Positions 28,296-52,113 of a DNA stretch of 64,000 nucleotides are shown here, one piece after another. This stretch comes from Candidatus Undinarchaeota archaeon (GTDB lineage Archaea > SpSt-1190 > JASMDC01). The notes under the pieces were generated by a model that made no database searches, was not told the origin of the DNA, and saw nothing but the letters and a program-made list of their open reading frames with translations. The translations under genes were made by a program, and so were the position numbers. The number at the start of each line of letters is the position of its first letter. Positions within the stretch are counted from its first letter, which is position 1. The DNA lies in assembly GCA_964519305.1 (NCBI GenBank), contig CAZFHY010000011.1, forward strand, positions 70,400 to 134,399, given 5' to 3'.

Positions 28296-28545
28296 TCTCG
28301 ACGGCGTTACCGATGGCTTGGCCAGGCAAGCCCTTTTCGAACCGTGCCCTTAGCGCTCCCTTGTTCCCATGAGTGTGGGTGAGGGTGCCGACGAGGGCCT
28401 TTCCACCGGTGCTGGTCCACGTGACCTTCTTACCTATGAGGTCCTTGGCTTTGTCCTTGGACTCGATGCCCTCGACCTTAACGATATACTGGTTGGTTTG
28501 TTGGGTGTGTCGTCCCATGCGGTAATTTGCGATCGTTCCCTTCAT
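28285..28545 (-). CDS. rpl35ae: Ribosomal protein L35Ae.
   Basis: 86 aa, MKGTIANYRMGRHTQQTNQYIVKVEGIESKDKAKDLIGKKVTWTSTGGKALVGTLTHTHGNKGALRARFEKGLPGQAIG. ATG at 28543-28545 overlaps the stop of the upstream gene (ATGA). Confidence 0.75.
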   Translation of the reverse strand: MKGTIANYRMGRHTQQTNQYIVKVEGIESKDKAKDLIGKKVTWTSTGGKALVGTLTHTHGNKGALRARFEKGLPGQAIGNAVEIGE

Positions 28546-29932: not shown

Positions 29933-30412
29933 ATGCCCATGAAAAAGCACGAGTTCGACAGGAAGCGTACAAAATGGTTGCGTGAGAAACAGATCCTTAT
30001 GGGGAGGATAGTTCGCTTCCTTCGGGAGAATGCCGAGACTGTATACTCGGGTGAGGAACTTGAGAAGCAGTTCGGTAAGTTCCTCCGGTTCGAATATGGG
30101 GCCCTTCTCAAGGATGCTATAGTGGTGCGTATGGAGGGGATGTCGTACTTCTACAGTCCCCCGCCCGACCTCAATCCCCGCCTTTCCGTAGATACATGGG
30201 TTGAACATGACTACTGCACCTATGAGCATGGCTCGGATCGGTGTACCGTCCTGGGTAAGAGTGGCGTCATCACACGCATCGTGGAGCCTGATCTGGATGC
30301 CGACGTGTTCGAACACCGGTACGAGGTGGACTTCGACAACACCATCCTTACACTCAAGAGCAACAACCTTCGTATCATGACCGAATCCGAACGAGAGGGG
30401 GGGTCCCGATAG
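29933..30412 (+). CDS. Hypothetical protein, possibly a winged-helix regulator at the 5' border of the BMC locus.
   Basis: 159 aa. N-terminal KRTKWLREKQILMGRIVRFLRENAETVYSGEELEKQFG. Its TAG stop (30410-30412) overlaps the putative ATA start of the next gene. Confidence 0.45.
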   Translation: MPMKKHEFDRKRTKWLREKQILMGRIVRFLRENAETVYSGEELEKQFGKFLRFEYGALLKDAIVVRMEGMSYFYSPPPDLNPRLSVDTWVEHDYCTYEHGSDRCTVLGKSGVITRIVEPDLDADVFEHRYEVDFDNTILTLKSNNLRIMTESEREGGSR

Positions 30413-30888
30413 CCATCCTAGCAATCCCTGCACGTGGATCGGACCAGGCTGCACTCGTTGCCTCGGATCTCGGTTCGGCGCCCTATATCCTTATCATAGA
30501 CACGGAAACGAAGGGTGTAGATGCCGTTCGTAACCGGCCTGAACGGGATGGTGGGGAGCCAGGCGAACGGGCAGCCCGACTAATCATAGCTAGAAATGCA
30601 ACGACCGTTCTCTTGGGGGACGCGGACCCCCGGGCAGTGGCAATGCTCGAGGCAAGTGGCGCAGAGGTCCGGCGAGGCCACAGTGGGGCTGTGACCGTGG
30701 TGCTGGAGCGACTGGAACCAAAAGGGGCCATCGGCGTGGACGAATGTTTCTGTCCGAATTGCAGCTACGCTCAGCGGCGCACTGGAACGCGGCCCTGTTA
30801 CCAACGCAAATGCCCTCAGTGCGGCAGTACCATGGACCGGCGATGGGTTACCCCCTATAAGTGGGGCGCATTTAATCCGGGACGGTAA
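30409..30888 (+). CDS. Dinitrogenase FeMo-cofactor-binding-fold (Nitro_FeMo-Co / NifX-NifB-like) protein fused to a C-terminal Cys4 zinc ribbon. The start is non-canonical or uncertain.
   Basis: In-frame translation from 30412: AILAIPARGSDQAALVASDLGSAPYILIIDTETKGVDAVRNRPE…ARLIIARNATTVLLGDADPRAVAMLEASGAEV… matches the family, which normally begins MKIAIP. Then CFCPNCSYAQRRTGTRPCYQRKCPQCG. There is no ATG/GTG/TTG between the stop at 30289 and the TTG at 30613. Confidence 0.55.
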   Translation: MAILAIPARGSDQAALVASDLGSAPYILIIDTETKGVDAVRNRPERDGGEPGERAARLIIARNATTVLLGDADPRAVAMLEASGAEVRRGHSGAVTVVLERLEPKGAIGVDECFCPNCSYAQRRTGTRPCYQRKCPQCGSTMDRRWVTPYKWGAFNPGR

Positions 30889-30915
30889 CCAAAAGCGGAG
30901 GCCGCCGCGCCCTCC

Positions 30916-30928
30916 ATAATATTAAATA
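30916..30928 (+). promoter_or_regulatory. TATA-box-like element (ATAATATTAAATA) about 40 nt upstream of the first BMC shell gene.
   Basis: AT-rich motif in otherwise GC-rich intergenic sequence, at a plausible archaeal TATA distance. Confidence 0.3.
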
Positions 30929-30965
30929 GCTTAGCGTCCTCGCCCTCTCCCGATAACGAGAGCGG

Positions 30966-31613
30966 ATGCCCATGACCGAACAGAAGGTGCAGCTAAGATG
31001 CTACAGCTACATAGACATGATGCAGCCACAGTTCGCCTCGTACTTCGCCACAGTGGCCCGAGGTTACCTCCCAAAGGCAGGCCAGGCCGCCCTCTTCATC
31101 GAGATCGCTCCGGGGATGCCTATCAATCGGATCACTGACGTGGCCGTCAAAGCCACCTCCGTCACCGTCGGCGAGCTCATCGTCGAGCGATCCTTCGGAT
31201 TCCTGGAAATCCACCACGACTCACAGGCCGAAGTGATGCAGGCGGGTCAGGCAATCCTCGATTATCTGGGTATCGACGAATCCGACCGGCTCAAGCCCAA
31301 GCTAGTCACAAACCAGATCATCAAACGGGTGAACGATTATCACTCTATGCTCATCAATCGCAGTACCAAAGGGATGATGCTCGTGCGGGACCAGTCCCTG
31401 TACATAGGTGAGACCGTACCTGCGGGCTATGCTGCGTACGCTGCCAACGAGGCCGAGAAGGCCGCTGATATCAACATTATCAACGTGCGCGCTGTTGGGC
31501 GTTTCGGACGGTACTATATCGGCGGGACCGAGTCAGAGGTCCAAGCGGCCATGCAGGCCGCGACCGTTGCGGTGAACGCTCTGGAAGGTAAGGAAGAGGA
31601 GCGAAAGAAATAG
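30966..31613 (+). CDS. BMC-T shell protein (tandem/permuted BMC domains, EutL/PduB-like).
   Basis: 215 aa. Two BMC-domain halves (…FGFLEIHHDSQAEVMQAGQAILDYLG… and …VGRFGRYYIGGTESEVQAAMQAATVAV…). Confidence 0.75.
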   Translation: MPMTEQKVQLRCYSYIDMMQPQFASYFATVARGYLPKAGQAALFIEIAPGMPINRITDVAVKATSVTVGELIVERSFGFLEIHHDSQAEVMQAGQAILDYLGIDESDRLKPKLVTNQIIKRVNDYHSMLINRSTKGMMLVRDQSLYIGETVPAGYAAYAANEAEKAADINIINVRAVGRFGRYYIGGTESEVQAAMQAATVAVNALEGKEEERKK

Positions 31614-31637
31614 ATACCCCGAGCCCCGCACCGGGTG

Positions 31638-31649
31638 TTATAATTTAAA
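31638..31649 (+). promoter_or_regulatory. TATA-like element (TTATAATTTAAA) upstream of the BMC-H gene. A GGAGG Shine-Dalgarno-like motif lies at 31706-31710.
   Basis: Motif position relative to the 31721 start. Confidence 0.3.
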
Positions 31650-31720
31650 GGAATACGTACGTTATACCTATCTCCCGAAGGGAGAACTGTTCACTGAAAG
31701 AGTATCGGAGGCTACCATAA

Positions 31721-32035
31721 ATGGAAGGTAACATCGCACTCGGCATGATTGAAACACGGGGCCTTGTAGGCTCTATCGAGGCCGCGGACGCCATGGTCAA
31801 GGCGGCACGGGTCAATCTCATTGGCAAGGAATTCATCGGTGGAGGCTATGTCACCGTGATGGTACGTGGTGATGTGGGAGCCGTGAAGGCTGCTGTCGAC
31901 GCTGGCGCTGCTGCTGCTAAGCGCGTCGGTGAGCTAGTGTCTGTGCACGTCATACCTCGCCCTCATGGCGAGGTGGAGTACATCCTCCCCAGTATCGACA
32001 CGGCGGCCGAGCATCCGGTCGTCAAGAAGAAATAG
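31721..32035 (+). CDS. BMC-H shell protein (Pfam00936, PduA/EutM-like hexamer).
   Basis: 104 aa. [30 protein letters not shown]…[26 protein letters not shown]. Confidence 0.9.
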
Positions 32036-32047
32036 GGTCGCATCGTG

Positions 32048-32078
32048 AGACCGCCCCCGGTCACATCGGGGGCGGTCT
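32048..32078 (+). terminator. Perfect 12-bp GC-rich stem-loop (AGACCGCCCCCG-gtcacat-CGGGGGCGGTCT) immediately after BMC-H. Attenuator/terminator-like.
   Basis: Inverted repeat read directly from the sequence. No oligo-T follows, so a function as an intrinsic terminator is uncertain. Confidence 0.35.
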
Positions 32079-32110
32079 GACCCGGTATCTGGGAAGAGGG
32101 GTCGTCTCGT

Positions 32111-32839
32111 ATGGACGCTGATGAGCTGATTGAGGAGATTACGACTGAGGTCATCAAGCGTTTCGATCCAACTTTTATCCGTATAGAGGATCGTCGTATT
32201 CTTGTCGTGCTCCACACTCCCGATAGGCATGTGCCTCAGGCCCTGACACGGCTCCTTGAGGATGTCGGTCCGCCGGGTGATCGGGATATCCTGGTCACCC
32301 CGGAAGTGCGTTCTTACTTGGCAGGACTCGGTATCAATTGTCGGGACCACGCTCGCGACGTCCTAGAGCCTGATGCAGTTCCCGGGATCCTCCATCGCCT
32401 CCACGAATATCGCATGGTTGTCGTCCCGGCTTTGAACTTCCATACAGTGCGCGCTATCGCCGAGCTGCGTGACGAGGATCCATTCGCACAACTTGTGCTC
32501 CAAGCACTGCTACGAGGATTGAAGGTTGTGATGCTCACCGATGCACTAGTACCTGCACATCGCGAGGGGGCGTCCGTGGCCCCCGGCCTTACGGCCGCGG
32601 CCGAGGATAACTTAAAAAAGCTACTTACCTACAACATCGTGCTCGTACGGCTTGATGAGATTGGGGCGGCGGTGGCCGAGAAGAAAGCACCTATGTCCAA
32701 GGACCTCATCACCGAGCAAGACATCATTGACCTCAAGAACGGCGATGTGACCGGACTAAGGGTGTCCCCCCGGGCCATCGTGACGCCGCTGGCGCGCGAC
32801 AAGGCGAAGGAATTGGGCATCACGATCATCCGGGAATGA
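32111..32839 (+). CDS. BMC-associated protein of unknown function with an N-terminal encapsulation-peptide-like helix. Its central domain is homologous to the N-terminal extension of the DeoC at 40069..41487.
   Basis: 242 aa. N-terminal MDADELIEEITTEVIKRF (amphipathic). Segments ILVVLHTPDR…, RMVVVPALNFHTVRAIAELRD…LKVVMLTDAL align with DeoC residues about 53-190. Confidence 0.7.
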   Translation: MDADELIEEITTEVIKRFDPTFIRIEDRRILVVLHTPDRHVPQALTRLLEDVGPPGDRDILVTPEVRSYLAGLGINCRDHARDVLEPDAVPGILHRLHEYRMVVVPALNFHTVRAIAELRDEDPFAQLVLQALLRGLKVVMLTDALVPAHREGASVAPGLTAAAEDNLKKLLTYNIVLVRLDEIGAAVAEKKAPMSKDLITEQDIIDLKNGDVTGLRVSPRAIVTPLARDKAKELGITIIRE

Positions 32840-32877
32840 GGTTCGGGGGGCTTGTACGGCGAGAGGGGTAAGCGTCA

Positions 32878-33192
32878 ATGGACGTATGCAAGGTAATAGG
32901 CGATATCGTCAGCACACGAAAGGACCCTAAGGCAGAGGGTTTCAAGCTACTTGTAGTACAACAGTTGGACATGCTTACCCAAAAACCCAAAGGCTACACC
33001 CTTGTGGCGGCAGATACAGTCGGTGCCGGCATGGGCGAAGTCGTGCTGGTTGTGCGCGGGAGCTCTTCGCGTATGACACAGCTTACCAATGAGAAACCCA
33101 TCGATGCAGCCATCATGGGGATCATCGACTACATACATATCGACGGGGAGCGGGTGTACTCCAAGTACCCCGACCGCGACCTGGAGACCTAG
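32878..33192 (+). CDS. BMC-P vertex protein (EutN/CcmL/PduN family, Pfam03319), paralog 1.
   Basis: 104 aa. MDVCKVIGDIVSTRKDPKAEGFKLLVVQQLD. Confidence 0.85.
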   Translation: MDVCKVIGDIVSTRKDPKAEGFKLLVVQQLDMLTQKPKGYTLVAADTVGAGMGEVVLVVRGSSSRMTQLTNEKPIDAAIMGIIDYIHIDGERVYSKYPDRDLET

Positions 33193-33203
33193 GGGGATAG
33201 AAC

Positions 33204-34634
33204 ATGGAAGTCACCGAGGACCAGATATCAAACATCGTCGAGGCAGTGCTCAAGAACGTGCAGAGCCAACTGGGCGACATGCCTGCGGCACGCGCGGGAA
33301 CTTCTCCGAAAGGTGAGGACGGGATCTTCGCAACCATTGACGAGGCCGTCACGCACGCGCTCGCGGCGCAGGAACAGTTCGTAGAACTGGGGCTGTCCAA
33401 GCGCGTCGAGATAATCCGGGCTATCCGGGATGCCATGGAAGAGAACGCGCGCACCTTGGCCGAGATGGCAGTGCGTGAGTCCGGGTTCGGCCGGATCGAG
33501 GACAAGGTCAAGAAGAACCTGCTCGCAGCCAAGAAGGCCCCGGGTACCGAGGCACTGCCTGCCGCCGCTAAGAGCGGCGACGATGGCCTCACACTCGTGG
33601 AACGAGGTCCTTACGGTGTCATCGGTTCCATCACACCCACAACCAATCCCGTGGCCACCATCACATCAAATGCCATCTCGATGCTCGCCGGGGGCAACAG
33701 CGTCGTGTTCAATCCCCATCCGAGGTCAAAGGGCGTCACCAACCGTGCAATCCAGATCATCAACCAGGCCGTCGTGACAGCGGGGGGTCCTCCGAACCTT
33801 CTCGGTTCTGTCATCGAGCCGACCATCGAGACATCGAACGAACTGATGAACCATCCGAGGATAAGGATGCTGATGGTCACCGGCGGTCCCGGCGTTGTGA
33901 CCGTGGCCATGAAGACCGGTAAGAAGGTCGTGGCCGCAGGTCCGGGAAATCCGCCTGTCATCGTGGACGATACCGCGAACATCCCTAGAGCCGCTAAGGA
34001 CATCGTGGACGGGGCAAGCTTCGATAACAATGTGCTTTGCATCGCTGAGAAGGAAGTGTACTGTTTCGAGGACGTCACCGACCCGCTCAAAGAGGAGATG
34101 AAGAAGCACGGCGCCTACGAGATCAGCGGTAAGCAGATCGAGGACCTGATATCCCTCGTGTTCGTGGATCCCGCCGGGGAACATCCCAAGGTCAACACGA
34201 AGTGGGTGGGTATCGACGCTTGGCGCATACTCAGAGAGATCGATATCCGCGTCAACGAGGATGTCCGGCTCATTATTGCCGAGGTCCCCGATGAACATCC
34301 TTTCGTCAATGCCGAGATGCTCATGCCCGTGCTACCTATCGTACGGGTGAGCACCATCGAGGAAGCGCTGGAGAGAGCGAAGCGCGCCGAGCACGGTTTC
34401 CGCCACACGGCCTGCATGCACTCTGAGAGCGTCTCCAACATGAGCTATGTAGCACGCTATATAGACACTACAATATTCGTCAAGAACGCCCCCTCCTATG
34501 CCGGTCTCGGTTTCGGTGGCGAGGGGCATGCCTCCCTGAGCATCGCCGGACCGACGGGGGAGGGTATCACAGGGCCTTTTGCCTTCACCCGCGAACGACG
34601 GTGCGTGCTCGCGGGATCCTTCCGTATCGTGTGA
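33204..34634 (+). CDS. CoA-acylating aldehyde dehydrogenase (PduP/EutE-like) with an N-terminal encapsulation peptide.
   Basis: 476 aa. N-terminal MEVTEDQISNIVEAVLKNV. Catalytic Cys in NNVLCIAEKE. ALDH fold motifs. Confidence 0.9.
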   Translation: MEVTEDQISNIVEAVLKNVQSQLGDMPAARAGTSPKGEDGIFATIDEAVTHALAAQEQFVELGLSKRVEIIRAIRDAMEENARTLAEMAVRESGFGRIEDKVKKNLLAAKKAPGTEALPAAAKSGDDGLTLVERGPYGVIGSITPTTNPVATITSNAISMLAGGNSVVFNPHPRSKGVTNRAIQIINQAVVTAGGPPNLLGSVIEPTIETSNELMNHPRIRMLMVTGGPGVVTVAMKTGKKVVAAGPGNPPVIVDDTANIPRAAKDIVDGASFDNNVLCIAEKEVYCFEDVTDPLKEEMKKHGAYEISGKQIEDLISLVFVDPAGEHPKVNTKWVGIDAWRILREIDIRVNEDVRLIIAEVPDEHPFVNAEMLMPVLPIVRVSTIEEALERAKRAEHGFRHTACMHSESVSNMSYVARYIDTTIFVKNAPSYAGLGFGGEGHASLSIAGPTGEGITGPFAFTRERRCVLAGSFRIV

Positions 34635-34645
34635 GTGAGTGAACC

Positions 34646-35980
34646 ATGGCCAAGAAACCCATCGACGCTATCAGGGACGCAGGTATTGTAGGGGCCGGAG
34701 GTGCCGGTTTCCCCACCCATGTCAAGTTGTCAGCAAAGGTCGACACAGTGATCGTCAACGGCGCTGAGTGTGAACCACTGCTCAAGGTGGACCAGCAGCT
34801 CACCGCCCTCCACGCCGAGGGGGTGGTCGCGGGTCTAGAGACAGCCATGGAGCTCACTGGTGCCGAGCGCGGTATCATCGCTCTTAAAGCGAAGTACAAG
34901 GCAGCCATCGAAGCGTTAACCCCTCTTATCGAGGGCAAGGACAACATAAGTATCGAGCTGCTGGGTAACTTCTACCCGGCAGGTGACGAGCAAGTGCTCG
35001 TGTATGAACTGTTGGGACGTATCGTGCCCGAGGGGGGCATCCCCTTGGAAGTCGGCGTAGTGGTCCAGAATGTGGGCACACTTATCAATATCGCAAAGGC
35101 CGTGAAGGGCGGAGTCCCGGTCACATCCCGGGCGTTGACCGTCGCTGGCGCTGTGGCGGAGCCCATGACCGTTGAGGTCCCTGTCGGGACGCCCCTACGC
35201 GAGCTCGTGGCCATGGCCGGTGGACCCACCGACGAGCCCTATAGCGTCCTTGTGGGAGGTCCTATGATGGGGAAGGTCGAGACCGACCTTGATACACCTA
35301 TCGACAAGACTACCTCTGGTATCGTCGTCCTCCCGTCGGACCATCCGCTCATGATCAAGAAGCAGGACGATATGTCCCGCAAGCTCAAACTTGCTCGGGC
35401 GGTGTGCATAAGGTGCAGCCTCTGCACACAGACCTGCCCACGCAGCTTGTTGGGCCACCATCTCTGGCCGGACCGGCTAATGCGTGCAATGGCCTACAAT
35501 GTCACGTGCGATCCGTCCGACCTCACAAACGCATTCCTGTGTGTCGAATGTGGTGTCTGCACGACCTACGCCTGTCCAATGGGACTGGACCCGTGTGCTA
35601 TGAACCGGGAGATCAAGGCACGTCTGGCCAAGGAGGGAATGGACAATCCCCATCGGGCCAAGGACCTGACCCCGAACCAGTACCGCTCGACACGCAAGAT
35701 ACCGACCTACCGGCTCGTCGGCCGACTGGGCCTGCTGGAGTACGATCGCGAGGCACCAGTGCGAGCGGTCGACCACCCTGTCCGAAAGGTGCGCATACCG
35801 CTCAAGCAGCACATCGGCGCACCCGCCAAGCCCACGGTGATCGTGGGCGATATCGTGAAGGAAGGGGATGTCATCGCCGAGATCCCAGAGGGGGCCCTGG
35901 GGGCCCGTGTTCACGCGTCCATTGCGGGGCGCGTTACTAAGATACTCGACCACATCGAGATAACCGCGGAGGAGAAGTGA
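34646..35980 (+). CDS. PduS-like Fe-S flavoprotein (RnfC/NuoF-related: Complex1_51K/SLBB N-terminus, two 4Fe-4S motifs, RnfC_N-like barrel at the C-terminus).
   Basis: 444 aa. GAGGAGFPTHVKL…VIVNGAECEPLL; CIRCSLCTQTCP and CVECGVCTTYCP ferredoxin motifs; C-terminal GDVIAEIPEGALGARVHASIAGRV. Confidence 0.8.
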   Translation: MAKKPIDAIRDAGIVGAGGAGFPTHVKLSAKVDTVIVNGAECEPLLKVDQQLTALHAEGVVAGLETAMELTGAERGIIALKAKYKAAIEALTPLIEGKDNISIELLGNFYPAGDEQVLVYELLGRIVPEGGIPLEVGVVVQNVGTLINIAKAVKGGVPVTSRALTVAGAVAEPMTVEVPVGTPLRELVAMAGGPTDEPYSVLVGGPMMGKVETDLDTPIDKTTSGIVVLPSDHPLMIKKQDDMSRKLKLARAVCIRCSLCTQTCPRSLLGHHLWPDRLMRAMAYNVTCDPSDLTNAFLCVECGVCTTYACPMGLDPCAMNREIKARLAKEGMDNPHRAKDLTPNQYRSTRKIPTYRLVGRLGLLEYDREAPVRAVDHPVRKVRIPLKQHIGAPAKPTVIVGDIVKEGDVIAEIPEGALGARVHASIAGRVTKILDHIEITAEEK

Positions 35981-35984
35981 TCAT

Positions 35985-36533
35985 ATGGTCCATGCTATCG
36001 GTCTTGTAGAAACCAACAACGTCGCCAAGGGCATCGAGTGCTGTGACGTGATGCTCAAGCGCTCGGATGTCGAGGCTATCGCCTCCTATCCAGTCTGTCC
36101 CGGGAAGTACATAATCCTCATCGCTGGCGAGGTGGCAGCAGTACGTTCGTCGGTGGACGCGGGCAAGCTTCAGGCCCAAGACTCCCTGGTGGACGACTTC
36201 GTTATCCCGAACATCCATCCACAGGTATTCCCTGCCATCCAGGCCACGACCGATGTGGACAATCTCCAGGCATTGGGTGTCATCGAGACCTTCTCGCTCT
36301 CATCCTGCATCGTGGCTGCCGACTTCGCGGTGAAGGCCGCGGACATCACGCTCATCGAGATCCGTCTCGGACGTGCTCTCGGGGGCAAGTCATTCGTCAC
36401 CTTGACGGGGGATACGGCCGCTGTTCGTTCAGCGGTCCAGGCCGGAGTGGAATCCGTGCGCGAGGACGGGCTCCTCCTTGACTACGTGGTGATCCCCTCA
36501 CCCCACCCCAACCTCCTTGAGTCCATCGTGTAA
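35985..36533 (+). CDS. BMC-T shell protein (tandem canonical BMC domains, PduT-like).
   Basis: 182 aa. Two BMC repeats (AIGLVETNNVAKGIECCDVMLK… and ALGVIETFSLSSCIVAADFAVKAADI…). Confidence 0.85.
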   Translation: MVHAIGLVETNNVAKGIECCDVMLKRSDVEAIASYPVCPGKYIILIAGEVAAVRSSVDAGKLQAQDSLVDDFVIPNIHPQVFPAIQATTDVDNLQALGVIETFSLSSCIVAADFAVKAADITLIEIRLGRALGGKSFVTLTGDTAAVRSAVQAGVESVREDGLLLDYVVIPSPHPNLLESIV

Positions 36534-36561
36534 TCCGGACAACTGAGGTGACACCGCGCTC

Positions 36562-36867
36562 ATGGAGACACCGACGGGCTGGGGGGACGCCCTCGGAATG
36601 GTGGAAACGCGGGGTCTAGTCGGTGCTGTTGAGGCTGCCGATGCCATGGTCAAGGCAGCACGGGTCTCGTTAGCGGGTCTTGAGCGTATTAGTGGTGGAC
36701 TCGTGACGGTGATGGTGCGAGGTGATGTTGGAGCAGTGAAAGCTGCAGTAGATGCCGGGGCCGCTGCTGCCCAGAGGGTCGGTGAACTCGTTGCGGTCCA
36801 CGTCATCCCCCGTCCCGACGAACTGGTCGAGGGCGTCCTTCCGCATGGCCCAGGGGGAAGATTGTAG
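36562..36867 (+). CDS. BMC-H shell protein, paralog 2.
   Basis: 101 aa. [30 protein letters not shown]…[26 protein letters not shown]. Confidence 0.85.
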
Positions 36868-37158
36868 ATGCTCATTGCCAAGGTAGTGGGAAATATCTGG
36901 GCCACTCAGAAGATACCGGTGCATGCGGACCAGAAGATAATGGTCTGTGTTCCGGTCGACCTCAAGGGGACATCCGAAGGTGACACTTTCCTGGCCATCG
37001 ACCGTGCACAGGCCGGGATCGGGGATGTCGTGCTAGTATCCCAAGAGGGAAAGTGCTGTAACATACTTATCGGTCGCGAATGGGCGGCCTGCAACTCTGC
37101 TATCCTGGGGGTAGTGGACTTCATTGAGACAGAGGAAGAATCAACACAGTTTGCGTGA
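36868..37158 (+). CDS. BMC-P vertex protein, paralog 2.
   Basis: 96 aa. MLIAKVVGNIWATQKIPVHADQKIMVCVPVD. Stop overlaps the TIM start region. Confidence 0.85.
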   Translation: MLIAKVVGNIWATQKIPVHADQKIMVCVPVDLKGTSEGDTFLAIDRAQAGIGDVVLVSQEGKCCNILIGREWAACNSAILGVVDFIETEEESTQFA

Positions 37159-37160
37159 TC

Positions 37161-38084
37161 ATGATGGACGACGAAGAACTAGCAAAAGTGGTGAGAGATG
37201 TGGTACTCTCGAAACTCCAAGAGAAAGAAGCCCGGGACGCGCTTTCGACGTCCCCTGAAGACATGTCCTCTGACGGGACCATCCCTCGTCATAACTATGC
37301 AGAGGCGGGTCATCCCCCTCTCATCGTAGCGGCGAATTGGAAGATGCACATGGATAAGCAATCGACGATCGAGTACGCCCAGGCGTTCGATCCGCCTGCC
37401 AGGGACGACCTCGCTGTTGTCGTTTGCCCACCCTATTATCTGCTATCCCTGCTCAAAGAGGCCTTGGATGACAAGCCCGTGGGGGTTGGTGCCCAGAACA
37501 TGCACCCTGAGCCAAAGGGGGCTTTCACAGGGGAGCTATCTCCGCTAATGCTCGCTGATGCGGGCTGCTCGCACGTAATCCTTGGCCACTCCGAGCGCCG
37601 ACATATCTTCGGTGAGACCGATGAACAGATCAATCCGAAGGTGGCGGCTGCCCTGGGCGCGGGGATTGCTCCAATCCTATGTGTAGGGGAGACGCTCGAC
37701 CAAAGGGAAGATGGTTCGACCATGCGCGTGATCACTAACCAGCTCACCCTTGGTCTCAATCGCATATCCATCAACGAGGTGCGCCCCCTGATAATTGCCT
37801 ACGAACCTGTGTGGGCTATCGGCACAGGGCGAGTTGCAACGCCCGAGCAAGCGCAAGAGGTCCATGCACATATCCGTGGAGTGCTCAAACAGCTCTATTC
37901 CTACAACGTTGCCCGGGACACACGCATCCTCTATGGCGGTTCTGTGAAACCGGCCAATGCTGGTGAGCTCGCACTCCAGCCCGACGTGGATGGATTCCTC
38001 GTGGGTGGTGCAGGCCTCAAACCGGACTCCTTCACCGAGATAATCCGCAACTCCCTGCACGCATTGGAGGGGGATGGTTCATAG
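37161..38084 (+). CDS. tpiA: Triosephosphate isomerase, bacterial-type (about 250-aa core) with a roughly 50-aa N-terminal extension carrying an encapsulation-peptide-like helix.
   Basis: Motifs AANWKMH, GHSERR, AYEPVWAIGTG, GGSVKP. N-terminal MMDDEELAKVVRDVVLSKLQEKEA. The frame is also open from the GTG at 37155. Confidence 0.9.
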   Translation: MMDDEELAKVVRDVVLSKLQEKEARDALSTSPEDMSSDGTIPRHNYAEAGHPPLIVAANWKMHMDKQSTIEYAQAFDPPARDDLAVVVCPPYYLLSLLKEALDDKPVGVGAQNMHPEPKGAFTGELSPLMLADAGCSHVILGHSERRHIFGETDEQINPKVAAALGAGIAPILCVGETLDQREDGSTMRVITNQLTLGLNRISINEVRPLIIAYEPVWAIGTGRVATPEQAQEVHAHIRGVLKQLYSYNVARDTRILYGGSVKPANAGELALQPDVDGFLVGGAGLKPDSFTEIIRNSLHALEGDGS

Positions 38085-38096
38085 GGGTGAAGGTGG

Positions 38097-38579
38097 TTGG
38101 ACTTCACTAAAGGAACTCGTGTCGTGATCGGTAGTGACCACGGTGGATTCGAGATCAAGGAGGCAGTGAAGGACCACCTCCAGCGTTTAGGATATTGTGT
38201 GGTGGACCTCGGATGCCATTCGCCTGATCCGGTGGACTATCCCGATATAGCCTTCCTTGTCGCCAGTGCCATAGCGACCAACGACGACACGGCCGGTATA
38301 ATGGTGGATGGTGTCGGTGTTGCTTCTGCCATGGTGGGGAACAAGGTACCTGGCGTGCGGGCCGCACCGGTATACGATGTGTTCTCGGCCCGGTCCAGTC
38401 GTGAGCACAACGATGCTAACATGCTCACTCTTGGTGCGAGGGTCACGGGGCCTGGCTTGGCGTGCCTCGTCGCCGAGGAATGGCTTGGAACCCCCTTCGG
38501 TGGGGGGCGACACGAACGACGGGTGAATAAGATCAGGGATATCGAGGCCCGGTTCATCCGGAGGGTGCCTCTGAAATAG
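38097..38579 (+). CDS. rpiB: Ribose-5-phosphate isomerase B (RpiB/LacAB family). TTG start.
   Basis: 160 aa. RVVIGSDHGGFEIKE…GVGVASAMVGNKVPGVRAA…NDANMLTLGARV. Confidence 0.85.
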   Translation: MDFTKGTRVVIGSDHGGFEIKEAVKDHLQRLGYCVVDLGCHSPDPVDYPDIAFLVASAIATNDDTAGIMVDGVGVASAMVGNKVPGVRAAPVYDVFSARSSREHNDANMLTLGARVTGPGLACLVAEEWLGTPFGGGRHERRVNKIRDIEARFIRRVPLK

Positions 38580-38916
38580 TACACCTAAGAACAAGGATTT
38601 CCCATCAGGGGGTATAAGTCGAGGGCCAGGTGTTCCCTGGCCCCCATAAGTCGTAGACTGGAATGAGAAAAAACTACTTTTTTATCGAACTAATTGAAGA
38701 AACAACCAATTAATCGATATTATGAAGAGAACTTCGCCAATACGCGAATTTAATGAAGAATACCAAGATTGGAAAGATTATACGGGATATATTTGCTCCT
38801 TGCGCCGAAAAAAGGCAATAATGTGCGGAGTGTGGCGGCCTACGCAAAGGTTCTAGATAATGCTTTTAATTAATGAGCGACCACTTGCTTGTGGACGAAC
38901 CTAGGACAAGGAGAGT
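38580..38916 (+). other. AT-rich (about 35% GC) 337-nt non-coding island inside the BMC locus, upstream of the pilin-like gene. Likely carries its promoter.
   Basis: Sharp compositional drop relative to the flanking roughly 60% GC genes. Multiple TATA-like tracts (TTTTTATCGAACTAATTGAAG…, GCTTTTAATTAATGAG). Confidence 0.4.
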
Positions 38917-39654
38917 GTGACCATGAGAATCCGAATGAAACGACTTGTGCGGTCCAAGCGTGGTGTGACACCCGTTATTGCCATTATTCTGTTGCTAATG
39001 ATGACAGTAGCAGCGGCAGGTGCGGCCTATCTTTGGATTACTAAGATACAGAAGACCATCACCACACAGGCTGAGAAGCAGATCATGACCAGTTTCCAGC
39101 AGGGAACACTGCAGGTCATCTCTGCCTATGCGTGTGAATCGAACTGCACGACCAACGGTGAAAGGGGCTGTGACGACAGGTCCAAGGTCAGTGGTGAAGT
39201 GTTCAAATACCATGGTAATGCCCCCGAGTCGACGTGGGGTGGAAACCTGACGGACGAGGGATGTTCGCTTGGAGGAGCATTGTGCTTCCTAGTGCGAAAC
39301 ACTGGAAATACTGTTGTGCGTATGAGCGATCTTGGTTCAGCCCAGGTCGTCTACGAGCTGCCCGAGGCGCCCGAGCTCGGTGAGCGCCCGCTGATGAGCA
39401 AGACAATCGGTGCGACCTTCAGCGGTGGCGGCACGGATGCGTGCTGCAAGTTCTCTGAGGTAGCTTCGGAAGGTAAGTGCGGAAACCAAAAATCCGTGGC
39501 CAGCAGAGAGACCTTCATCATCAGCTTCTTCGGAAAGTTCAAGACCTCGAATGGCGAGTCCCGAAGAATGTGGTACAGCGATGTGAAGGACCAGCGCATC
39601 ATCGTGAGCATGAACCTGCCCAGCGGGTTCAAGGTCTCACACCAGGTTGTGTAA
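38917..39654 (+). CDS. Type IV pilin-like / archaeal class III signal-peptide protein (DUF361-like), with a Cys-containing globular domain.
   Basis: 245 aa. N-terminal …RSKRGVTPVIAIILLLMMTVAAAGAAYLW with a KRG|VTPVIA prepilin-peptidase-type cleavage site. Confidence 0.6.
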   Translation: MTMRIRMKRLVRSKRGVTPVIAIILLLMMTVAAAGAAYLWITKIQKTITTQAEKQIMTSFQQGTLQVISAYACESNCTTNGERGCDDRSKVSGEVFKYHGNAPESTWGGNLTDEGCSLGGALCFLVRNTGNTVVRMSDLGSAQVVYELPEAPELGERPLMSKTIGATFSGGGTDACCKFSEVASEGKCGNQKSVASRETFIISFFGKFKTSNGESRRMWYSDVKDQRIIVSMNLPSGFKVSHQVV

Positions 39655-39778
39655 AAGCACAGAGATCGTGGACGGATAAAGAACTGGTGAGAGGGGCTCC
39701 GGTCATGGCCGGGGCCCTCATATTCTTCTTCTAGAGCCTGTGACAACCTATTTAAAGCTGCAGCGCTCCCTTCCCGCC

Positions 39779-40069
39779 ATGCTCCTAGCGCAGGTGGTGG
39801 GCAATGTCGTGTGTACGCGAAAGGACCCCCATCTCAAGGGTATAAAGCTCCTTGTGGTACAGCGCGTCAATGAGGCCGGAGAGGTCATTGGGCGTCACCA
39901 GGTCGCTGTCGATGCACTGGGCACGACCGGACCTGGCGAGTTGGTATATCTTGCCACAAAGAAGGAGGCAGCACACCCGTTCGAGGGCCACTTTCTCCCC
40001 GTGGACCTCGCGATAATTGGACATGTAGAGGGAGTGAACATACCCGATCCAACACTGGTCAGGGGTTGA
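39779..40069 (+). CDS. BMC-P vertex protein, paralog 3 (the frame is also open from the ATG at 39740).
   Basis: [30 protein letters not shown]… EutN/CcmL fold. Stop TGA 40067-40069 overlaps the DeoC start. Confidence 0.8.
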
Positions 40070-41487
40070 TGACAATGGTTCAGGATGCTGATATCGAATC
40101 GCTTGTTAAGAAGGTCACAGAGCAGGTAATGAAGCGAATGGAAGCGCCCAAGAAAGCGTGTCCAGAGTCTGTCGCTCCATCGAGTCCCTCTGGAGGGGTG
40201 CTCGTTGTACTTGCTGGGGAACGCGGTGATGTGGACGCTGTGCTCGACCAGGTGCGGTGCATCTGTGCAGAGGCCTCCGATGCAACCATCGTGCTAGCGA
40301 ACGGAGCGGAGGCGCTCTTTCCGAGTTCGAGGCTCTCTGTAGCAGCGCCCGGAGCGACAATCCTGACCGAGAGCGATTGCCCTGATGTGCTCAACCTTCT
40401 CAAGGGTGCATCTGTGGTATTTATCCCCCTTCTGGACCTTGCATCGGCCTCGAAGATCGCTGATACCGTTACAGACACACTACCTGTCAAGCTCGCAGTG
40501 TTCGCAGCTCTTCAGGGAAAGACTGTCGTAGCGGCGCGTGACGGTATCCCTTCTGCGTGTATCCCCTTGGAACAGGTACCCGATGGTGCCCGCAAACGCT
40601 TGGAAGGTATGCTCGGGGACCTAGAGGAGCTAGGACTCACTCTTGTAGATCTTGCCGATATCGCAGGAGGGAAGAAGGTATCCCTCGTGTGCGCACAGGG
40701 AAAGGGTGAGGAGTGCCTGGCATGCGGTCTTTGTGTCATCAACAATGCCGACAGTGTCCGGGGCATACTCGCTGCTGGCGCTGACCGCATCGGTGCAGCG
40801 GCGGGAACCCGGATCGAGGACAAGGAGATCGCTAATACTATCGACCACACGCTGCTCAAGCCCGACGCCACCACCGAACAGATACGCAAGTTGTGTGAGG
40901 AGGCCATCCAGTACGAGTTCGCCTCGGTGTGCGTCAATCCCGCAAACGTCAAGCAAGCCGCCGACTTGGTGAAGGGATCAAAAGTGAAGGTCACTACTGT
41001 CATAGGCTTCCCGTTGGGCGCCACAACACCCACGACCAAGTCCATCGAGACGCGTGACGCCATCGCAAATGGCGCAAATGAGATCGACATGGTCATCAAC
41101 GTAGGTGCGCTGAAATCCGGGGACGACGACCTCGTCCGTCGCGATATTGAAGCCGTTGTGGAAGCGGCCCAAGGTCAAGCGATCGTAAAGGTAATCCTTG
41201 AGACCGCGCTCCTGAACAAGGATGAGAAGGTCCGCGGCTGTCTCTTGGCCAAGATGGCCGGTGCCGACTTCGTCAAGACCTCTACAGGATTCGGGCCTTC
41301 GGGTGCCACTGTGGAGGACATCGCGCTCATGCGGGCAACCGTCGGCCCCGACATGGGAATAAAGGCATCAGGTGGAATCCGTGATACCGAGACCGCGAAG
41401 GCCATGATCGCAGCGGGAGCAACCCGCATAGGCGCATCCGCATCAGTCGCTATAACGAAAGGCGACGAGGGCGGTGAAGGTTACTAG
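40069..41487 (+). CDS. deoC: Deoxyribose-phosphate aldolase (DeoC) with a roughly 260-aa N-terminal extension: an encapsulation-peptide-like helix, a domain shared with the 32111..32839 protein, and a CxxCxxC motif.
   Basis: C-terminal DeoC core …[15 protein letters not shown]…VCVNP…[12 protein letters not shown]…VKVILET…VKTSTGFG…GIKASGGIR…. N-terminal [33 protein letters not shown] motif at about residue 225. Confidence 0.9.
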
Positions 41488-41493
41488 TAGCCA

Positions 41494-42171
41494 ATGGCCA
41501 ATCCCGACTGGTTGCGACAGCGTATCTGTGATATTGGCAGACGTATGTATGAACACCGATATGTGGTGGCGACATCAGGAAATATCTCTGCCAGATGCGG
41601 GGATGATTTGTTCATCACCACTCCTTCCGGAGTGTGCAAGGGTGAGATGTCGCCTGACCAGCTCGTGATCGTGGACGGTGCCGGCCAGCTCGTTCGTCAG
41701 GATTGTCTGTACAGGCAGTCTTCTGAGTTCAGGCTCCATTTGGCGGCGTACACCGTACGACCCGATGTGGCGGCGGTTGTCCACGCACACCCTCCGTTCT
41801 GTACTGCCTTCGCTACAGCGCGAATCCCATTGGACCGTGCAGTTCTGCCTGAGAGCGTGCTGACCGTGGGTGCTGTGCCCTTGGCATCCTATGCAACCCT
41901 CTCGACGTGGGAGGTACCGGAATCTGTGGCGCCGTTCCTTGCTGAGGCCAACGCGGTGCTCCTTGCCAATCACGGTGTCGTGACATTCGGTGGCGATCTC
42001 GAGGAGGCGTATCACCGACTGGAGGAGGTGGAGCATCTTGCCGAGACGGTGTACAGGGCCCGTCGTCTTGGTGGGGAAGTGGCCCTTACATCTGATGAGC
42101 TCGCGGCCCTGGATAACGTGCGGAGGAAGATGGGGCACCCGAAGGGTGCTCCCTGTCGACCGCTCGAGTGA
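41494..42171 (+). CDS. Class II aldolase/adducin-family protein (FucA/AraD/MtnB-like).
   Basis: 225 aa. ATSGNISAR…HLAAY…VVHAHPPFCTAFA… metal-binding His motifs. Confidence 0.85.
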   Translation: MANPDWLRQRICDIGRRMYEHRYVVATSGNISARCGDDLFITTPSGVCKGEMSPDQLVIVDGAGQLVRQDCLYRQSSEFRLHLAAYTVRPDVAAVVHAHPPFCTAFATARIPLDRAVLPESVLTVGAVPLASYATLSTWEVPESVAPFLAEANAVLLANHGVVTFGGDLEEAYHRLEEVEHLAETVYRARRLGGEVALTSDELAALDNVRRKMGHPKGAPCRPLE

Positions 42172-42173
42172 AG

Positions 42174-44954
42174 CTATTTTACCACGATTGCGGGCTTCCC
42201 GGGTAATGCCCGGGTGGACTTAGCGTCCTTCGAGAGGGTCTCGCGAACGACCTCCACAGTGCATCCGAAACGCTTTGACACCATAGGGGCAACCAGTTCC
42301 AGAGCCTTGGCTTCGTTGTCCTCAGATAGCACGAGAGCCGGTACCCACGAGGGATTCTTCAGGAGGCGTGGGATGAGCTGCGAGATCTGCTTACCGTACC
42401 GACGGAGCGTGTCAACTTCCATGACGGCCTTTATGAGCGTACCCTGATCGCGTTCATCACCAGATACTTCCGAGTACCGTCGCATGAAGTCATACTTCCA
42501 GTCGGCAGCTCCGATGAGCGTGATAGCATCGTGCTTGTTGCTGCCCAGAATGCCCTGGATCTCAACTACATCGTCGCAGATCGCGCTGTAGAGGCCCCAC
42601 TGGTACTCGGCCTCTGGTGTGAGCACATTTGGATCGTACTCAGGCCACTGTGCCAGCGAGATGAATCCCTCCCTACCGTGGTGCGCCCACACTTCCTCAG
42701 CGATGTGTGGTGTGATGGGGGCCACGAGCAGTGCGAGGTTCCGCACACATTCCTCGTATATCTTACGGTTGACACTCCCCAGCTTGTACCGGCTGAGCTC
42801 CTTGGAGAATGCCATCACATCATGGATCGCCCAGCGGAACAGTAACTGTTCGTAGTTACGGGTAGCATCGCGGATGGTGCGGTGGAGCAGGAAGAGCATG
42901 TGCTCGTCCGTTGATGTGATGTCCTCACGCACGTCAGAGGGGTGCTCACCAAGTGTGTGGTGGAGCCTATAGAGGAATTTGCTCGCGTTCTCCAGTCCCT
43001 GGTCTGCCCACTCGAACTCCTTCTCGGGATTCGAACCGAAGAGGATGAACAGACGCGAGGCGTCGGCCCCCGCCCGCTCGATGAGTTCCATGACGTTGAC
43101 GGTGTTCCCTAGGCTCTTGGACATCTTTGCAGAGCGCATGACGTAGGGATTCCCGCACTCGACACATTTCCCCTCTTCGTGCCTGCCGGGTTGGAGGAGG
43201 ACATCGCACATCTCACAGAACGGTGCTTCCTTGTTCACCATGCCCTGACACAGGAGGGCCGAGAAGGGCTCGTCGATACGATGGAGCCCCATGTCCCGGA
43301 GCGCCTTCATGAAGAAACGGGCGTAAAGCAGGTGCAACACTGCGTGCTCGATCCCGCCAATGTACTGGTCCACGGCCATCCAGTACTGGGCCGCGTCCCG
43401 AGAGAAGGGAGTATCGTTCTCTTGAGGGGAGCAGTACCTCAGGAAGTACCAGGACGAGTCCACGAAGGTGTCCATCGTGTCCGTCTCGCGTCGAGCGGGC
43501 TTACCGCACGTGGGGCAAGTCGTGTTCACGAAATCCTTGGAGGTTTCCAGGGGATTCCCGCTCCCGCTGAACGTGACGTCCTTTGGGAGCACAACAGGCA
43601 GCTGGTCCTCGGGCACGGGGACGATGCCGCACTGGTCGCAATAGATAATCGGGATCGGAGTGCCCCAGTATCGCTGACGGGAGATTAACCAGTCACGAAG
43701 CCGGTAGTTCACCGTAGGGCCGCCCTTGCCCATCTCCTTGAGCTTCTGGCCGATGGCGTCTATGGCCTCTCGGTTCTCCCAGTCGTCGAACTCGGCCGAG
43801 TTGACCAGTTCGCCATCCTCGATGTATGCGCGGTGCATCTTGTCCGCTTCAAGCTTGTAGCCCCGGGGCTGGATGACCACGGTGATCGGGATGTCGAACT
43901 TCTTGGCGAACTCGAAGTCGCGCTGGTCATGAGCTGGGACTGCCATTACGGCTCCAGCACCATATTCATAGATGACGAAATTCCCAACATAGATCGGGAT
44001 CTCCGTACCGAGGATGGGGTGTATGGCGTGCTTTCCGATGAACATGCCCTTCTTCTCATGCTCCGCGTCGGTCCGCTCGAACTTATCCTCCAGTTGCACT
44101 TCGGCAAGGAAGGCGTTGAACTTATCCTCGTACTCGGTGCCTTTCACCCATGCGCGCACCCAGGGGTGCTCGGGAGCGAACACCATGAAGGTAACGCCGT
44201 AGAGCGTGTCGGCGCGGGTCGTGAAGATGGGTACGGTCTCGCCTGTACCTTTGACCTCGAAATCGATGATAGTACCCTCGCTACGCCCGATCCAGTTGCG
44301 CTGCATGATCTTGACGCGCTCTGGCCAATCAAGGCCCTCTAGACCGGACAGCAGCTCTTCTGCATAATCGGTGATCTTGAAATACCACTGGGTGAGGTCC
44401 TTATACTCCACAGTGGAGGAGCAGCGCCAGCACTTGCCGTTTATGTTCTGCTCGTTGGCCAATACGGTGGCGCACGACGGGCACCAGTTCACGATGGCCC
44501 CGCGTCGGTCCACCAGGCCTTTCTCCATGAGCTTGATGAATATCCATTGGTTCCATCGGTAATAGTCCTCAGTGCAACTCTGGATCTGACGGTCCCAGTC
44601 GTAGCTGAGCCCCATGCGCTTCTGTTGGACCTTTATTGCGTTGATGTTTTCCCAGGTCCAAGTCTCAGGATCTGCGCCGTGCTTGATGGCAGCGTTCTCC
44701 GCGGGCAGGCCGAACGCATCGTATCCCATGGGGTAGAGCACGTTACATCCCCGCATGCGCTTGAAGCGTGCGAGCGTGTCGCCAAGAGCGTAGTTACGCA
44801 GGTGACCTGCGTGGAGGGTCGCTGAGGGATAGGGATACATCTCGAGGCAGTAGAACTTCTTCTTGGTGGGATCCTCAGAGACCTTGAAGATGCCGGCCTC
44901 CTCCCAACGCTTCTGCCATGTCTGTTCAATCCGAGTGTGGTCGTAACCGCTCAC
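42174..44954 (-). CDS. leuS: Leucyl-tRNA synthetase (archaeal type).
   Basis: 926 aa. HAGHLRNY (HIGH) and KMSKSLGN motifs. Archaeal-type editing-domain arrangement. Confidence 0.95.
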
Positions 44955-51660: not shown

Positions 51661-52113
51661 TTATTCAGATGAATCTACTTCTGTAGAAGATGGGCTCCCC
51701 TTGCCCTTTTTTCTCACTTCAGACATGACATTTTCCCACTCCAGGGGGCGCCCCCACATGTTTACGGCGATTCTGACTAGAATTGGATCGTCGGTTCCAG
51801 ATATCAGAGCGCCCGTAAGTGCTGAAGCCTTGTCGAAGCGGAGCACGAAAGCAGATCCGCGGGAGGCAGGTGAAGCTGGAACTTCGGGAGGGAAGCGTGA
51901 AATGACCTCCCGAATGGCCCGGGAACTCTCGATACGCCCCTCGATGATGGTGATGGGATTGCCGAAGTGACCTGAAGCGGAACGTACGTTCAGTACGATA
52001 TTATCGGGAAGGATCGTGCGAAGTGCAGTCCTTACCTTCTCCACCGACTCTGTTGCGTGGCAGAAAGCCTTCGCCGAGAGGGAGGAGAACCTCAAACCTT
52101 TTCCGTGCCCCAT
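51661..52113 (-). CDS. UPF0201 / COG1325 family protein (predicted RNA-binding, exosome-associated).
   Basis: 150 aa. AFCHATESVEKVRTAL motif typical of the family. Adjacent to rpl15e, as is common in archaea. Confidence 0.5.
   Translation of the reverse strand: MGHGKGLRFSSLSAKAFCHATESVEKVRTALRTILPDNIVLNVRSASGHFGNPITIIEGRIESSRAIREVISRFPPEVPASPASRGSAFVLRFDKASALTGALISGTDDPILVRIAVNMWGRPLEWENVMSEVRKKGKGSPSSTEVDSSE

Follow-up and report, generated by a model that had tools for sequence, protein, structure and literature searches.

Archaeal microcompartments were recently described by Du et al. (bioRxiv, 18 November 2025; PMC12747264), who screened more than 15,000 archaeal genomes and reported loci of the sugar-phosphate-utilizing (SPU) type in the Hodarchaeales, in the JASLWR01 order of the Thermoplasmatota and in SpSt-1190. 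The SpSt-1190 and JASLWR01 loci carry an extra shell protein, BMC-Tdp, and lack a phosphotransacylase (PTAC); JASLWR01 has lost one BMC-H shell protein, and both cluster with the bacterial microcompartments (BMCs) of the Myxococcota. For the Hodarchaeales proteins, shell assembly was demonstrated by transmission electron microscopy and recruitment was shown to depend on encapsulation peptides. Archaeal microcompartments are also mentioned in a companion preprint on a cultured Hodarchaeales strain. On the bacterial side, Dwyer, Sutter and Kerfeld (2024; PMC11585597) showed that deoxyribose-5-phosphate aldolase (DERA), the universal signature enzyme of SPU loci, is active and binds a ribose-5-phosphate isomerase (RPI) homologue, and they treat triosephosphate isomerase (TPI) and aldolase as accessory enzymes. 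In their study loci devoid of PTAC typically possess Tdp, and both this link and an exit of acetyl-CoA through Tdp have already been proposed for bacterial SPU loci. Here we analyze a stretch of 64,000 nucleotides from a Candidatus Undinarchaeota archaeon (assembly GCA_964519305.1, contig CAZFHY010000011.1, positions 70,400 to 134,399), which we call the window. Very probably the window holds, on the chromosome of a SpSt-1190 archaeon not yet in culture, an SPU microcompartment locus that is intact and vertically inherited, that descends from a Myxococcota-type bacterial SPU locus and that would work by the compartment mechanism proposed below.

An earlier note on this DNA, made from the sequence alone, had held a microcompartment in an archaeon to be novel. 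This claim is superseded because Du et al. already report SpSt-1190 microcompartments with the same composition, that is, two BMC-H, one BMC-Ts, the extra BMC-Tdp and three BMC-P, no PTAC, SPU enzymes and clustering with Myxococcota. Their account of SpSt-1190 comprises a few sentences, and relative to it the window adds a pilin insertion, a NifX-like gene and the co-divergence of the locus with its flanks. What appears to be undescribed is modest throughout: the co-divergence with the flanks together with the purifying selection, the homology between a 'DUF' protein and the N-terminal domain of DERA with their flavoprotein fold, the non-canonical start of the NifX-like gene, and the pilin cassette.

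The ORF listing and the Pfam and NCBIfam scans reveal 15 co-directional open reading frames (ORFs) on the + strand from the gene for BMC-Tdp to that for a class II aldolase (30966-42171). Their order is Tdp-H1-DUF-P1-AldDH-MNdh-Ts-H2-P2-TPI-RpiB-pilin-P3-FlavDERA-AldoII, and two more conserved ORFs are located upstream of Tdp (29933-30412 and 30409-30888). The shell set thus consists of two BMC-H, one BMC-Ts, one BMC-Tdp and three BMC-P. Gene content, domain identities and sequence motifs are direct observations. The shell and enzyme genes, with the ratio of nonsynonymous to synonymous divergence (dN/dS) given where it belongs to a single gene, are these:

30966-31613, + strand: BMC-Tdp, a permuted tandem shell protein of the kind with a gated large pore (PDB 5v74 HO-5816, E 8e-66; NF053796 CcmP, 264 bits; PF27545 and PF00936)
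31721-32035, + strand: BMC-H1 (PF00936, E 2.4e-30; dN/dS 0.044)
32111-32839, + strand: 'DUF' protein of 242 amino acids (aa) with putative encapsulation peptide, predicted flavoprotein fold and PduM-like C-terminal tail
32878-33192, + strand: BMC-P1, 104 aa (PF03319, E 1.2e-28)
33204-34634, + strand: CoA-acylating aldehyde dehydrogenase (AldDH) with putative N-terminal encapsulation peptide (NF011927, PRK15398, 645 bits against a cut-off of 403)
34646-35980, + strand: PduS/RnfC-like metabolosome NADH dehydrogenase (MNdh; PF01512, SLBB, Fer4_17 and RnfC_N; RnfC structures at E 1e-62)
35985-36533, + strand: BMC-Ts, PduT-like (PF00936 twice, 161.7 bits; 3nwg at E 9e-63, with PduT also matching)
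36562-36867, + strand: BMC-H2 (PF00936, E 6.7e-30)
36868-37158, + strand: BMC-P2, 96 aa (PF03319; fraction of K and R 0.07)
37155-38084, + strand: TPI of bacterial type with a putative N-terminal encapsulation peptide and linker of about 55 aa (PF00121 from residue 57)
38097-38579, + strand: SPU-type RpiB homologue (PF02502; NF004051, 158.5 bits against a cut-off of 135)
39740-40069, + strand: BMC-P3, 109 aa (PF03319, E 3.6e-22; gene callers place the start at 39779)
40066-41487, + strand: FlavDERA, the signature enzyme, composed of a putative encapsulation peptide, a predicted flavoprotein-fold domain, a four-cysteine motif and DERA (TIGR00126)
41494-42171, + strand: class II aldolase of the FucA/AraD family, AldoII (PF00596, 172 bits)

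The complete SPU-type set of shell and enzyme genes claimed in the earlier note is confirmed, as every gene named there is an intact ORF with Pfam or NCBIfam matches. The note had counted twelve co-directional genes; the common direction stands, and the number has to be raised to 15 with the 242-aa 'DUF' gene and the pilin-like gene included. Its enzyme core of AldDH, PduS-like protein, DeoC with an extension, RpiB, bacterial-type TIM and class II aldolase holds as well, with profile scores over the cut-offs and a PF00596 match for the aldolase. One assignment has to be corrected. The permuted BMC-T had been called EutL-like, but comparison with solved structures places HO-5816 of H. ochraceum, CcmP and CsoS1D as its best relatives, and it therefore belongs to the double-stacking Tdp class and not to the EutL class. 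The other tandem shell protein, BMC-Ts, has a pore cysteine in a CPGK motif at residue 38, and all three BMC-P pass the gathering score of PF03319.

Adjoining the gene for BMC-Ts, the MNdh gene encodes an FMN/NADH domain and two 4Fe-4S motifs, one at residue 254 (CxxCxxCxxxC) and the other at residue 299 (CxxCxxCxxxxC). The pair thus has the parts of the PduS-PduT or MNdh-BMC-Ts electron conduit, namely the same RnfC-like FMN/NADH domain, the two 4Fe-4S motifs and the neighboring PduT-like Ts with its pore cysteine, and may form a conduit of this kind. TPI scores 196 bits with TIGR00419 (cut-off 131) and just 47 bits with the model for the archaeal enzyme. The DERA barrel of FlavDERA is recognized by TIGR00126 at residues 255-464 with 285 bits against a cut-off of 117 and is preceded by an N-terminal extension of 250 aa. 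More than 100 full-length homologues of this fusion were found. The extension of the DERA characterized for SPU6 has about 70 residues, whereas the one in the window consists of a flavoprotein-fold domain of about 250 aa and the four-cysteine motif. The motif itself (C-x8-C-x2-C-x2-C, residues 209-223, window positions 40690-40734), which has its place between flavoprotein-fold domain and barrel, is conserved and recurs in the consensus of the family. A metal or Fe-S site is conceivable here, and the literature apparently does not discuss it.

The proteins DUF, AldDH, TPI and DERA have in common an N-terminal amphipathic helix of the pattern [DE]x[IL]xx[IV]xxxV and a linker rich in Pro, Ser and Gly; in AldDH a P/G/S linker comes after the helix. 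Encapsulation peptides classically have this layout, and the four N-termini probably serve as such. The 'DUF' protein is a paralog of the N-terminal domain of DERA, and a common flavoprotein fold is predicted for the two. BLASTP found nothing between them; the homology is detected by profile-profile comparison. A word-index search for homologues of the 'DUF' protein gave three matches, too few for a standalone alignment. For the structure prediction an alignment that also includes the DERA fusions was used instead; its C-terminal 40 or so residues are unreliable.

We also searched for the components by which the described loci differ. A tblastn search of the window with a PduL query gave a best E-value of 0.38; the positive control, on which the validity of the query rests, is its match to 56 bacterial loci at E<=1e-19. 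The absence of PduL and of an alcohol dehydrogenase at the locus, as the earlier note had it, is borne out. No Pfam match to citrate synthase (PF00285) was found in any of the 15 cluster ORFs or in the two ORFs before them, and a disordered tail rich in K and R is present on none of P1, P2 and P3 (104, 96 and 109 aa). The type II archaeal microcompartment of the Hodarchaeales (Asgard) shares with the window the fusion of flavoprotein-like domain and DERA, the 'DUF' protein, AldDH, the MNdh-Ts pair, RPI, TPI, the class II aldolase and a Myxococcota-like origin. What sets the Hodarchaeales loci apart is PTAC and/or citrate synthase, the lack of Tdp and, on P2, a disordered DNA-binding tail rich in K and R; the window has Tdp and none of the others. 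Bacterial SPU microcompartments (Sutter et al. 2021; Dwyer et al. 2024, PMC11585597) have the same extended DERA, AldDH, RPI with aspartate, PduS homologue and BMC-P triplet, at least one Ts, and Tdp where PTAC is absent. TPI and aldolase are typical of SPU1 and SPU4, which possess PTAC and no Tdp, whereas the window joins TPI and aldolase with Tdp. A further difference is the host, an archaeon here and Bacteria for the SPU microcompartments.

By analogy with the homologous bacterial and Hodarchaeales systems, we suggest the following course for shell assembly, encapsulation, substrate use, electron export and exit of acetyl-CoA. The facets would be tiled by H1, H2, Ts and Tdp and the vertices capped by P1 to P3. 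The amphipathic N-terminal peptides could recruit the 'DUF' protein, AldDH, TPI and DERA. Deoxyribose-5-phosphate would enter and be cleaved by DERA, in complex with the aspartate variant of RpiB, to glyceraldehyde-3-phosphate (G3P) plus acetaldehyde. AldDH would then convert acetaldehyde, CoA and NAD+ to acetyl-CoA and NADH. MNdh could reoxidize the NADH, and the electrons would pass via its Fe-S clusters to a 4Fe-4S cluster in the pore of Ts and out of the shell. TPI would interconvert G3P and dihydroxyacetone phosphate (DHAP), and the class II aldolase probably feeds in a second substrate by splitting a ketose-1-phosphate into DHAP and an aldehyde. With no phosphotransacylase present, the gated pore of Tdp would presumably be where acetyl-CoA and CoA exchange. 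The earlier note had proposed such a route with recycling of the cofactor through the PduS-like protein and the BMC-T; this matches current models, and Ts has the CPGK pore cysteine and MNdh the two 4Fe-4S motifs.

The compartment may also be functional with a main substrate other than deoxyribose-5-phosphate, which we consider improbable. Either a ketose-1-phosphate (fuculose-, ribulose- or rhamnulose-1-phosphate) would be split by the class II aldolase into DHAP, which the encapsulated TPI would take care of, and lactaldehyde or glycolaldehyde, or the aldolase would condense G3P and DHAP, as proposed by Dwyer et al. The PF00596 aldolase and the TPI with its encapsulation peptide are conserved in the clade, both are accessory enzymes in the scheme of Dwyer et al., and FucA and ribulose-1-phosphate aldolase are found, together with OtnC and AraD, among the best sub-threshold NCBIfam matches of the aldolase. 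We note, however, that DERA as the universal SPU signature reaches an equivalog score here and carries a putative encapsulation peptide, whereas none was identified on the aldolase; there the alignment of the N-terminus sets in at residue 9 of the Pfam domain. Moreover, both routes can coexist. We retain deoxyribose-5-phosphate as the more likely main substrate.

The locus is embedded in archaeal DNA. Downstream, at a distance of 2.8 kb, lies the gene for an archaeal TopA (TIGR01057, 739 bits), and the flanks further hold genes for class I LysRS, IorAB and PAC2. Four flank markers with their positions are:

28285-28545, - strand: L35Ae, an archaeal marker 2.2 kb upstream of the locus
52092-52694: L15e, archaeal flank marker
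59021-60421: class I CCA-adding enzyme, archaeal flank marker
63408-63911: TFE, archaeal flank marker

The leucyl-tRNA synthetase (LeuRS) gene abutting the locus (42174-44954, - strand) encodes a hybrid. Its core is of bacterial type (TIGR00396, 968 bits, residues 4-779), and its C-terminal domain is archaeal-like (TIGR00395/NF008957, residues 605-925). Thus, L15e, L35Ae, Cca, TFE, TopA, LysRS-I and IorAB are archaeal as the earlier note stated, and LeuRS with its TIGR00396 core has to be taken off that list. The S-adenosylmethionine synthetase gene (20875-22041, + strand) encodes an enzyme of the bacterial/eukaryotic MetK type (TIGR01034, 554 bits) and not of the archaeal MAT type; it is another housekeeping gene of bacterial derivation in this archaeon.

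The bacterial-type core of LeuRS, together with the fact that the closest relatives of all BMC genes are bacterial, could be taken to mean that a bacterial, for example myxobacterial, microcompartment fragment was mis-joined to archaeal DNA during assembly or binning. We consider this explanation effectively refuted. An identical MNdh protein is found in 31 blocks of the assembly collection and is carried by all of the 24 contigs read. Five loci fetched from ENA, JGI and Logan, one of them on a 238-kb scaffold, match the window at 99.99-100% identity, and three of the five span both junctions; the junctions are identical in the five assemblies, which come from different pipelines. Both junctions also recur with the whole locus in a sister genome of about 90% nucleotide identity (L086, a 57.8-kb contig), which has the same downstream genes LeuRS-TopA-IorAB-DUF7343. 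The left junction is further reproduced in the genome ETNP3_MAG_31 (see below). Against L086 the synonymous divergence (dS) is 0.29-0.56 in most genes of the locus and 0.39-0.48 in LeuRS, TopA and IorA. Because its dS equals that of the neighbors, LeuRS is not a recent arrival. The 14 BMC genes, all of them intact in two species, have dN/dS values of 0.025-0.13 and no stop codons. Since the dS values are similar, the dN/dS values are low and stop codons are absent, the locus and its flanks have co-diverged under purifying selection. Archaeal context, vertical inheritance and purifying selection are thus shown. Finally, an archaeal pilin gene is located inside the cluster, and the composition of the locus is indistinguishable from that of its surroundings: the tetranucleotide profiles match the flanks, and the relative synonymous codon usage (RSCU) correlates with r 0.954 as compared to a flank-versus-flank baseline of 0.956. 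The GC content of the window is 0.57; four of the five related loci from Myxococcota and 'Deltaproteobacteria' discussed below have 0.70-0.73 and the fifth (L048) has 0.52.

The earlier note had described the locus as native and of the same composition as the flanks, and had asked for a tetranucleotide comparison and for a check against a chimeric assembly. The first, now carried out, and the codon usage support its view, and the junctions shared among pipelines and with a genome diverged by about 10% settle the second. Its assumption that the shell genes are not pseudogenes also proved right, in the window as well as in the sister genome.

The best match in a scan of the genome collection was JASMDC010000003.1 ('Candidatus Undinarchaeales archaeon isolate ETNP3_MAG_31'), with 95% amino acid identity in MNdh and the same synteny in the left flank. 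Most locus and flank proteins of this genome are 86-99% identical and syntenic to the window, and the locus as a whole has about 89-90% nucleotide identity. Judged by these sequences, the genome of the window is a sister species of ETNP3_MAG_31. Zhang et al. (mBio 2024; PMC10936187) classify ETNP3_MAG_31 as SpSt-1190, 97% complete, with 3.85 Mb and a GC content of 0.60. It comes from the oxygen-deficient zone of the Eastern Tropical North Pacific; according to these authors, who nowhere mention microcompartments, it is probably free-living.

Outside the archaea the gene order DUF-P-AldDH-MNdh-Ts-H-P-TPI-RpiB-P-(H)-FlavDERA-AldoII is found in five loci from Myxococcota and 'Deltaproteobacteria' (L028, L045, L048, L050 and L075), which are 46-62% identical to the window in most genes; the identity of BMC-H reaches 84%. 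A neighbor-joining tree of AldDH, MNdh and Ts (1057 columns) unites these loci with the archaeal ones in a clade with 100% bootstrap support. Its archaeal tips are the window, ETNP3, one further archaeal metagenome-assembled genome, the JASLWR01 Thermoplasmatota and one relative of the latter; their monophyly has a bootstrap support of 34%. The bacterial loci, although of the same order and forming the sister clade, have PduL directly upstream of the DUF gene, where the archaeal loci have Tdp (Tdp-H1 in the window), and they carry neither the pilin nor the NifX-like gene. A PTAC gene was not found downstream of the Myxococcota locus L075, where a histidine kinase gene is located; its PduL gene is upstream instead. 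The JASLWR01-type loci (L011 and L009) have one H, its gene placed before DERA, and 50-62% identity to the window. The flanks of L009 and L011 contain no archaeal marker genes, and the archaeal status of the two is taken from the database annotation and the preprint.

More metagenomic loci are of the Tdp-first, PTAC-less type (L092 and L093). In L092 the genes for AldDH and MNdh are separated by an insertion (13219-14809) of a gene for an AAA_15/AAA_21 ATPase together with two small ORFs, which looks like a defense or mobile cassette inside the BMC operon. A deeper relative (L091, on a 2.9-kb contig with a GC content of 0.695) shares the window-specific order NifX-like-Tdp-H1-DUF-P1-AldDH with 57-93% identity. 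A locus of another arrangement was seen on a 530-kb contig (L089; GCA_041890195.1, JBEEQD010000007.1), PTAC-H-DUF-P-AldDH-MNdh-Ts-H-H-TIM-RpiB-P-H-P-DERA. On its flanks JAB and WD40/beta-propeller proteins are encoded, and the locus is possibly a microcompartment of the Asgard type II.

The cluster of the window is interrupted between RpiB and P3 by a spacer and a pilin gene:

38580-38916, no strand: AT-rich spacer of 337 bp from RpiB to the pilin gene, with a hairpin GGGCCAGG...CCTGGCCC, a T7 run and a dip of the GC content to 0.54
38917-39654, + strand: archaeal type IV pilin/archaellin-like protein with a class III signal peptide (TIGR02537, 37.6 bits against a cut-off of 20)

This gene is of archaeal type because its product matches the N-terminal domain of archaellins and type IV pilins; in Pfam it has no match at E<=0.01 and at E<=10 only the sub-threshold Pilin_N (E 0.04). 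The pilin is hypervariable. The pilins of the window and of the sister species L086 (8785-9579) have 48% identity, and ETNP3_MAG_31 (L006, 14212-15449) carries two tandem copies, one per allele type. In the bacterial and JASLWR01-type loci examined (L007-L075) no pilin gene was found. Given the low identity to L086 and the duplication in ETNP3_MAG_31, we regard it as a variable cassette whose insertion is confined to this lineage. By its sequence the upstream spacer probably splits the cluster into separate transcription units, and another terminator-like hairpin follows the pilin gene (39693-39718).

Several points weigh against a working SPU compartment in a SpSt-1190 host. Because the cluster is interrupted by the pilin gene, which has an AT-rich region of its own upstream and a terminator-like hairpin, co-expression of the distal genes for P3, DERA and the aldolase is not guaranteed. 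The class II aldolase does not reach any NCBIfam equivalog cut-off. When aligned to 3he8 and 1nn4, the RpiB homologue shows Asp71 where E. coli RpiB has its catalytic Cys66, and Asp is found there in 22 out of 22 related loci. According to Dwyer et al. this change is found in all SPU RPIs, which have negligible ribose-5-phosphate isomerase activity and form a 1:1 complex of DERA and RPI. The homologue is thus probably a partner of DERA and not a ribose-5-phosphate isomerase. Next, a locus in the ENA assembly ERZ23498658 (L004) differs from the window by two single-nucleotide polymorphisms in 15 kb, one of which, at window position 33828, changes AldDH codon 209 from GAG to TAG (E209*). This is either a natural null allele of a core enzyme or a sequencing error. 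The host, finally, would be a free-living SpSt-1190 archaeon with about 4 Mb from marine oxygen-deficient zones, the lineage being the one to which a relative with 95% protein identity has been assigned in the literature.

The interrupting pilin gene, the nonsense allele of AldDH in one population and the loss of the catalytic cysteine of RpiB, together with the missing PTAC, would also fit a recently acquired or decaying island of horizontal transfer that no longer makes a compartment. We hold this to be very unlikely. The 14 BMC genes remain intact in two species at dN/dS values of 0.025-0.13, the composition is fully ameliorated, and the architecture is kept in the deeper relative L091. Moreover, the change from Cys to Asp and the absence of PTAC in the presence of Tdp are normal for SPU subtypes. 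An intact and inherited microcompartment locus thus remains the reading which we prefer.

Upstream of the shell genes we note three further features:

29933-30412, + strand: hyp159, a conserved ORF of 159 aa, 90% identical in ETNP3_MAG_31
30409-30888, + strand: ORF with a NifX/NifB-like (Nitro_FeMo-Co) domain and a C-terminal CxxC...CxxC zinc ribbon (PF02579, 42.8 bits against a cut-off of 26.3)
30889-30965, no strand: conserved intergenic region of 77 bp before Tdp, 95% identical to ETNP3_MAG_31 as compared to about 89% for the region overall

The first ORF has no Pfam match even at E<=10 and is possibly the first gene of the cluster. The NifX-like ORF is an open frame in which none of the codons ATG, GTG and TTG occurs before 30613, and it is absent from the ENA and JGI gene calls in all assemblies examined. 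The frame is intact in ETNP3_MAG_31 and L086 with a dN/dS of 0.14, and a copy of 62% identity is located directly upstream of Tdp in L091. In the window, ETNP3_MAG_31 and L086 alike, the TAG stop codon of hyp159 overlaps an ATA at 30409 ('ATAG'). The overlap in all three genomes suggests that the NifX-like gene could be translated by termination-reinitiation at this non-canonical ATA start. A frameshift fusion of hyp159 and the NifX-like ORF was also considered and tentatively rejected; the G7 run is not kept in ETNP3_MAG_31 and the ATAG overlap is. The intergenic region before Tdp contains a TATA-like sequence, ATTAAATA at 30921, and is a candidate for the archaeal promoter and 5' untranslated region of the shell and enzyme genes. 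A scan of the region for sigma-70 promoters and terminators gave no excess over chance.

Elsewhere in the window two tandem paralogous genes encode M18 aminopeptidases (23441-24736 and 24854-26275, - strand), and four long ORFs of 497-680 aa have no significant Pfam or NCBIfam match (10653-12539, 52734-54764, 56170-57663 and 60378-62420).

It is conceivable, with a rather small likelihood, that the locus represents a separately domesticated archaeal variant. In this case the gated Tdp would have replaced PTAC, acetyl-CoA would be exported to the cytoplasm (e.g. for an ADP-forming acetyl-CoA synthetase), and the NifX-like/zinc-ribbon gene and the pilin gene would have been recruited. If so, the NifX-like/zinc-ribbon protein possibly serves MNdh and Ts as a carrier of a cofactor or of Fe-S, and in oxygen-deficient waters the fast-evolving pilin cassette could couple deoxyribose catabolism to DNA taken up from outside the cell.

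In summary, the window provides an independent and strong genomic confirmation for a less-studied archaeal carrier of microcompartments, a DPANN-associated lineage; here the locus sits on the chromosome, is inherited vertically and is subject to purifying selection. Its value is the corroboration and a few unreported details and not a new phenomenon. Protein-shelled metabolic organelles were long held to be exclusive to Bacteria. Their presence in archaea changes this view and bears on the horizontal transfer of whole organelle modules.

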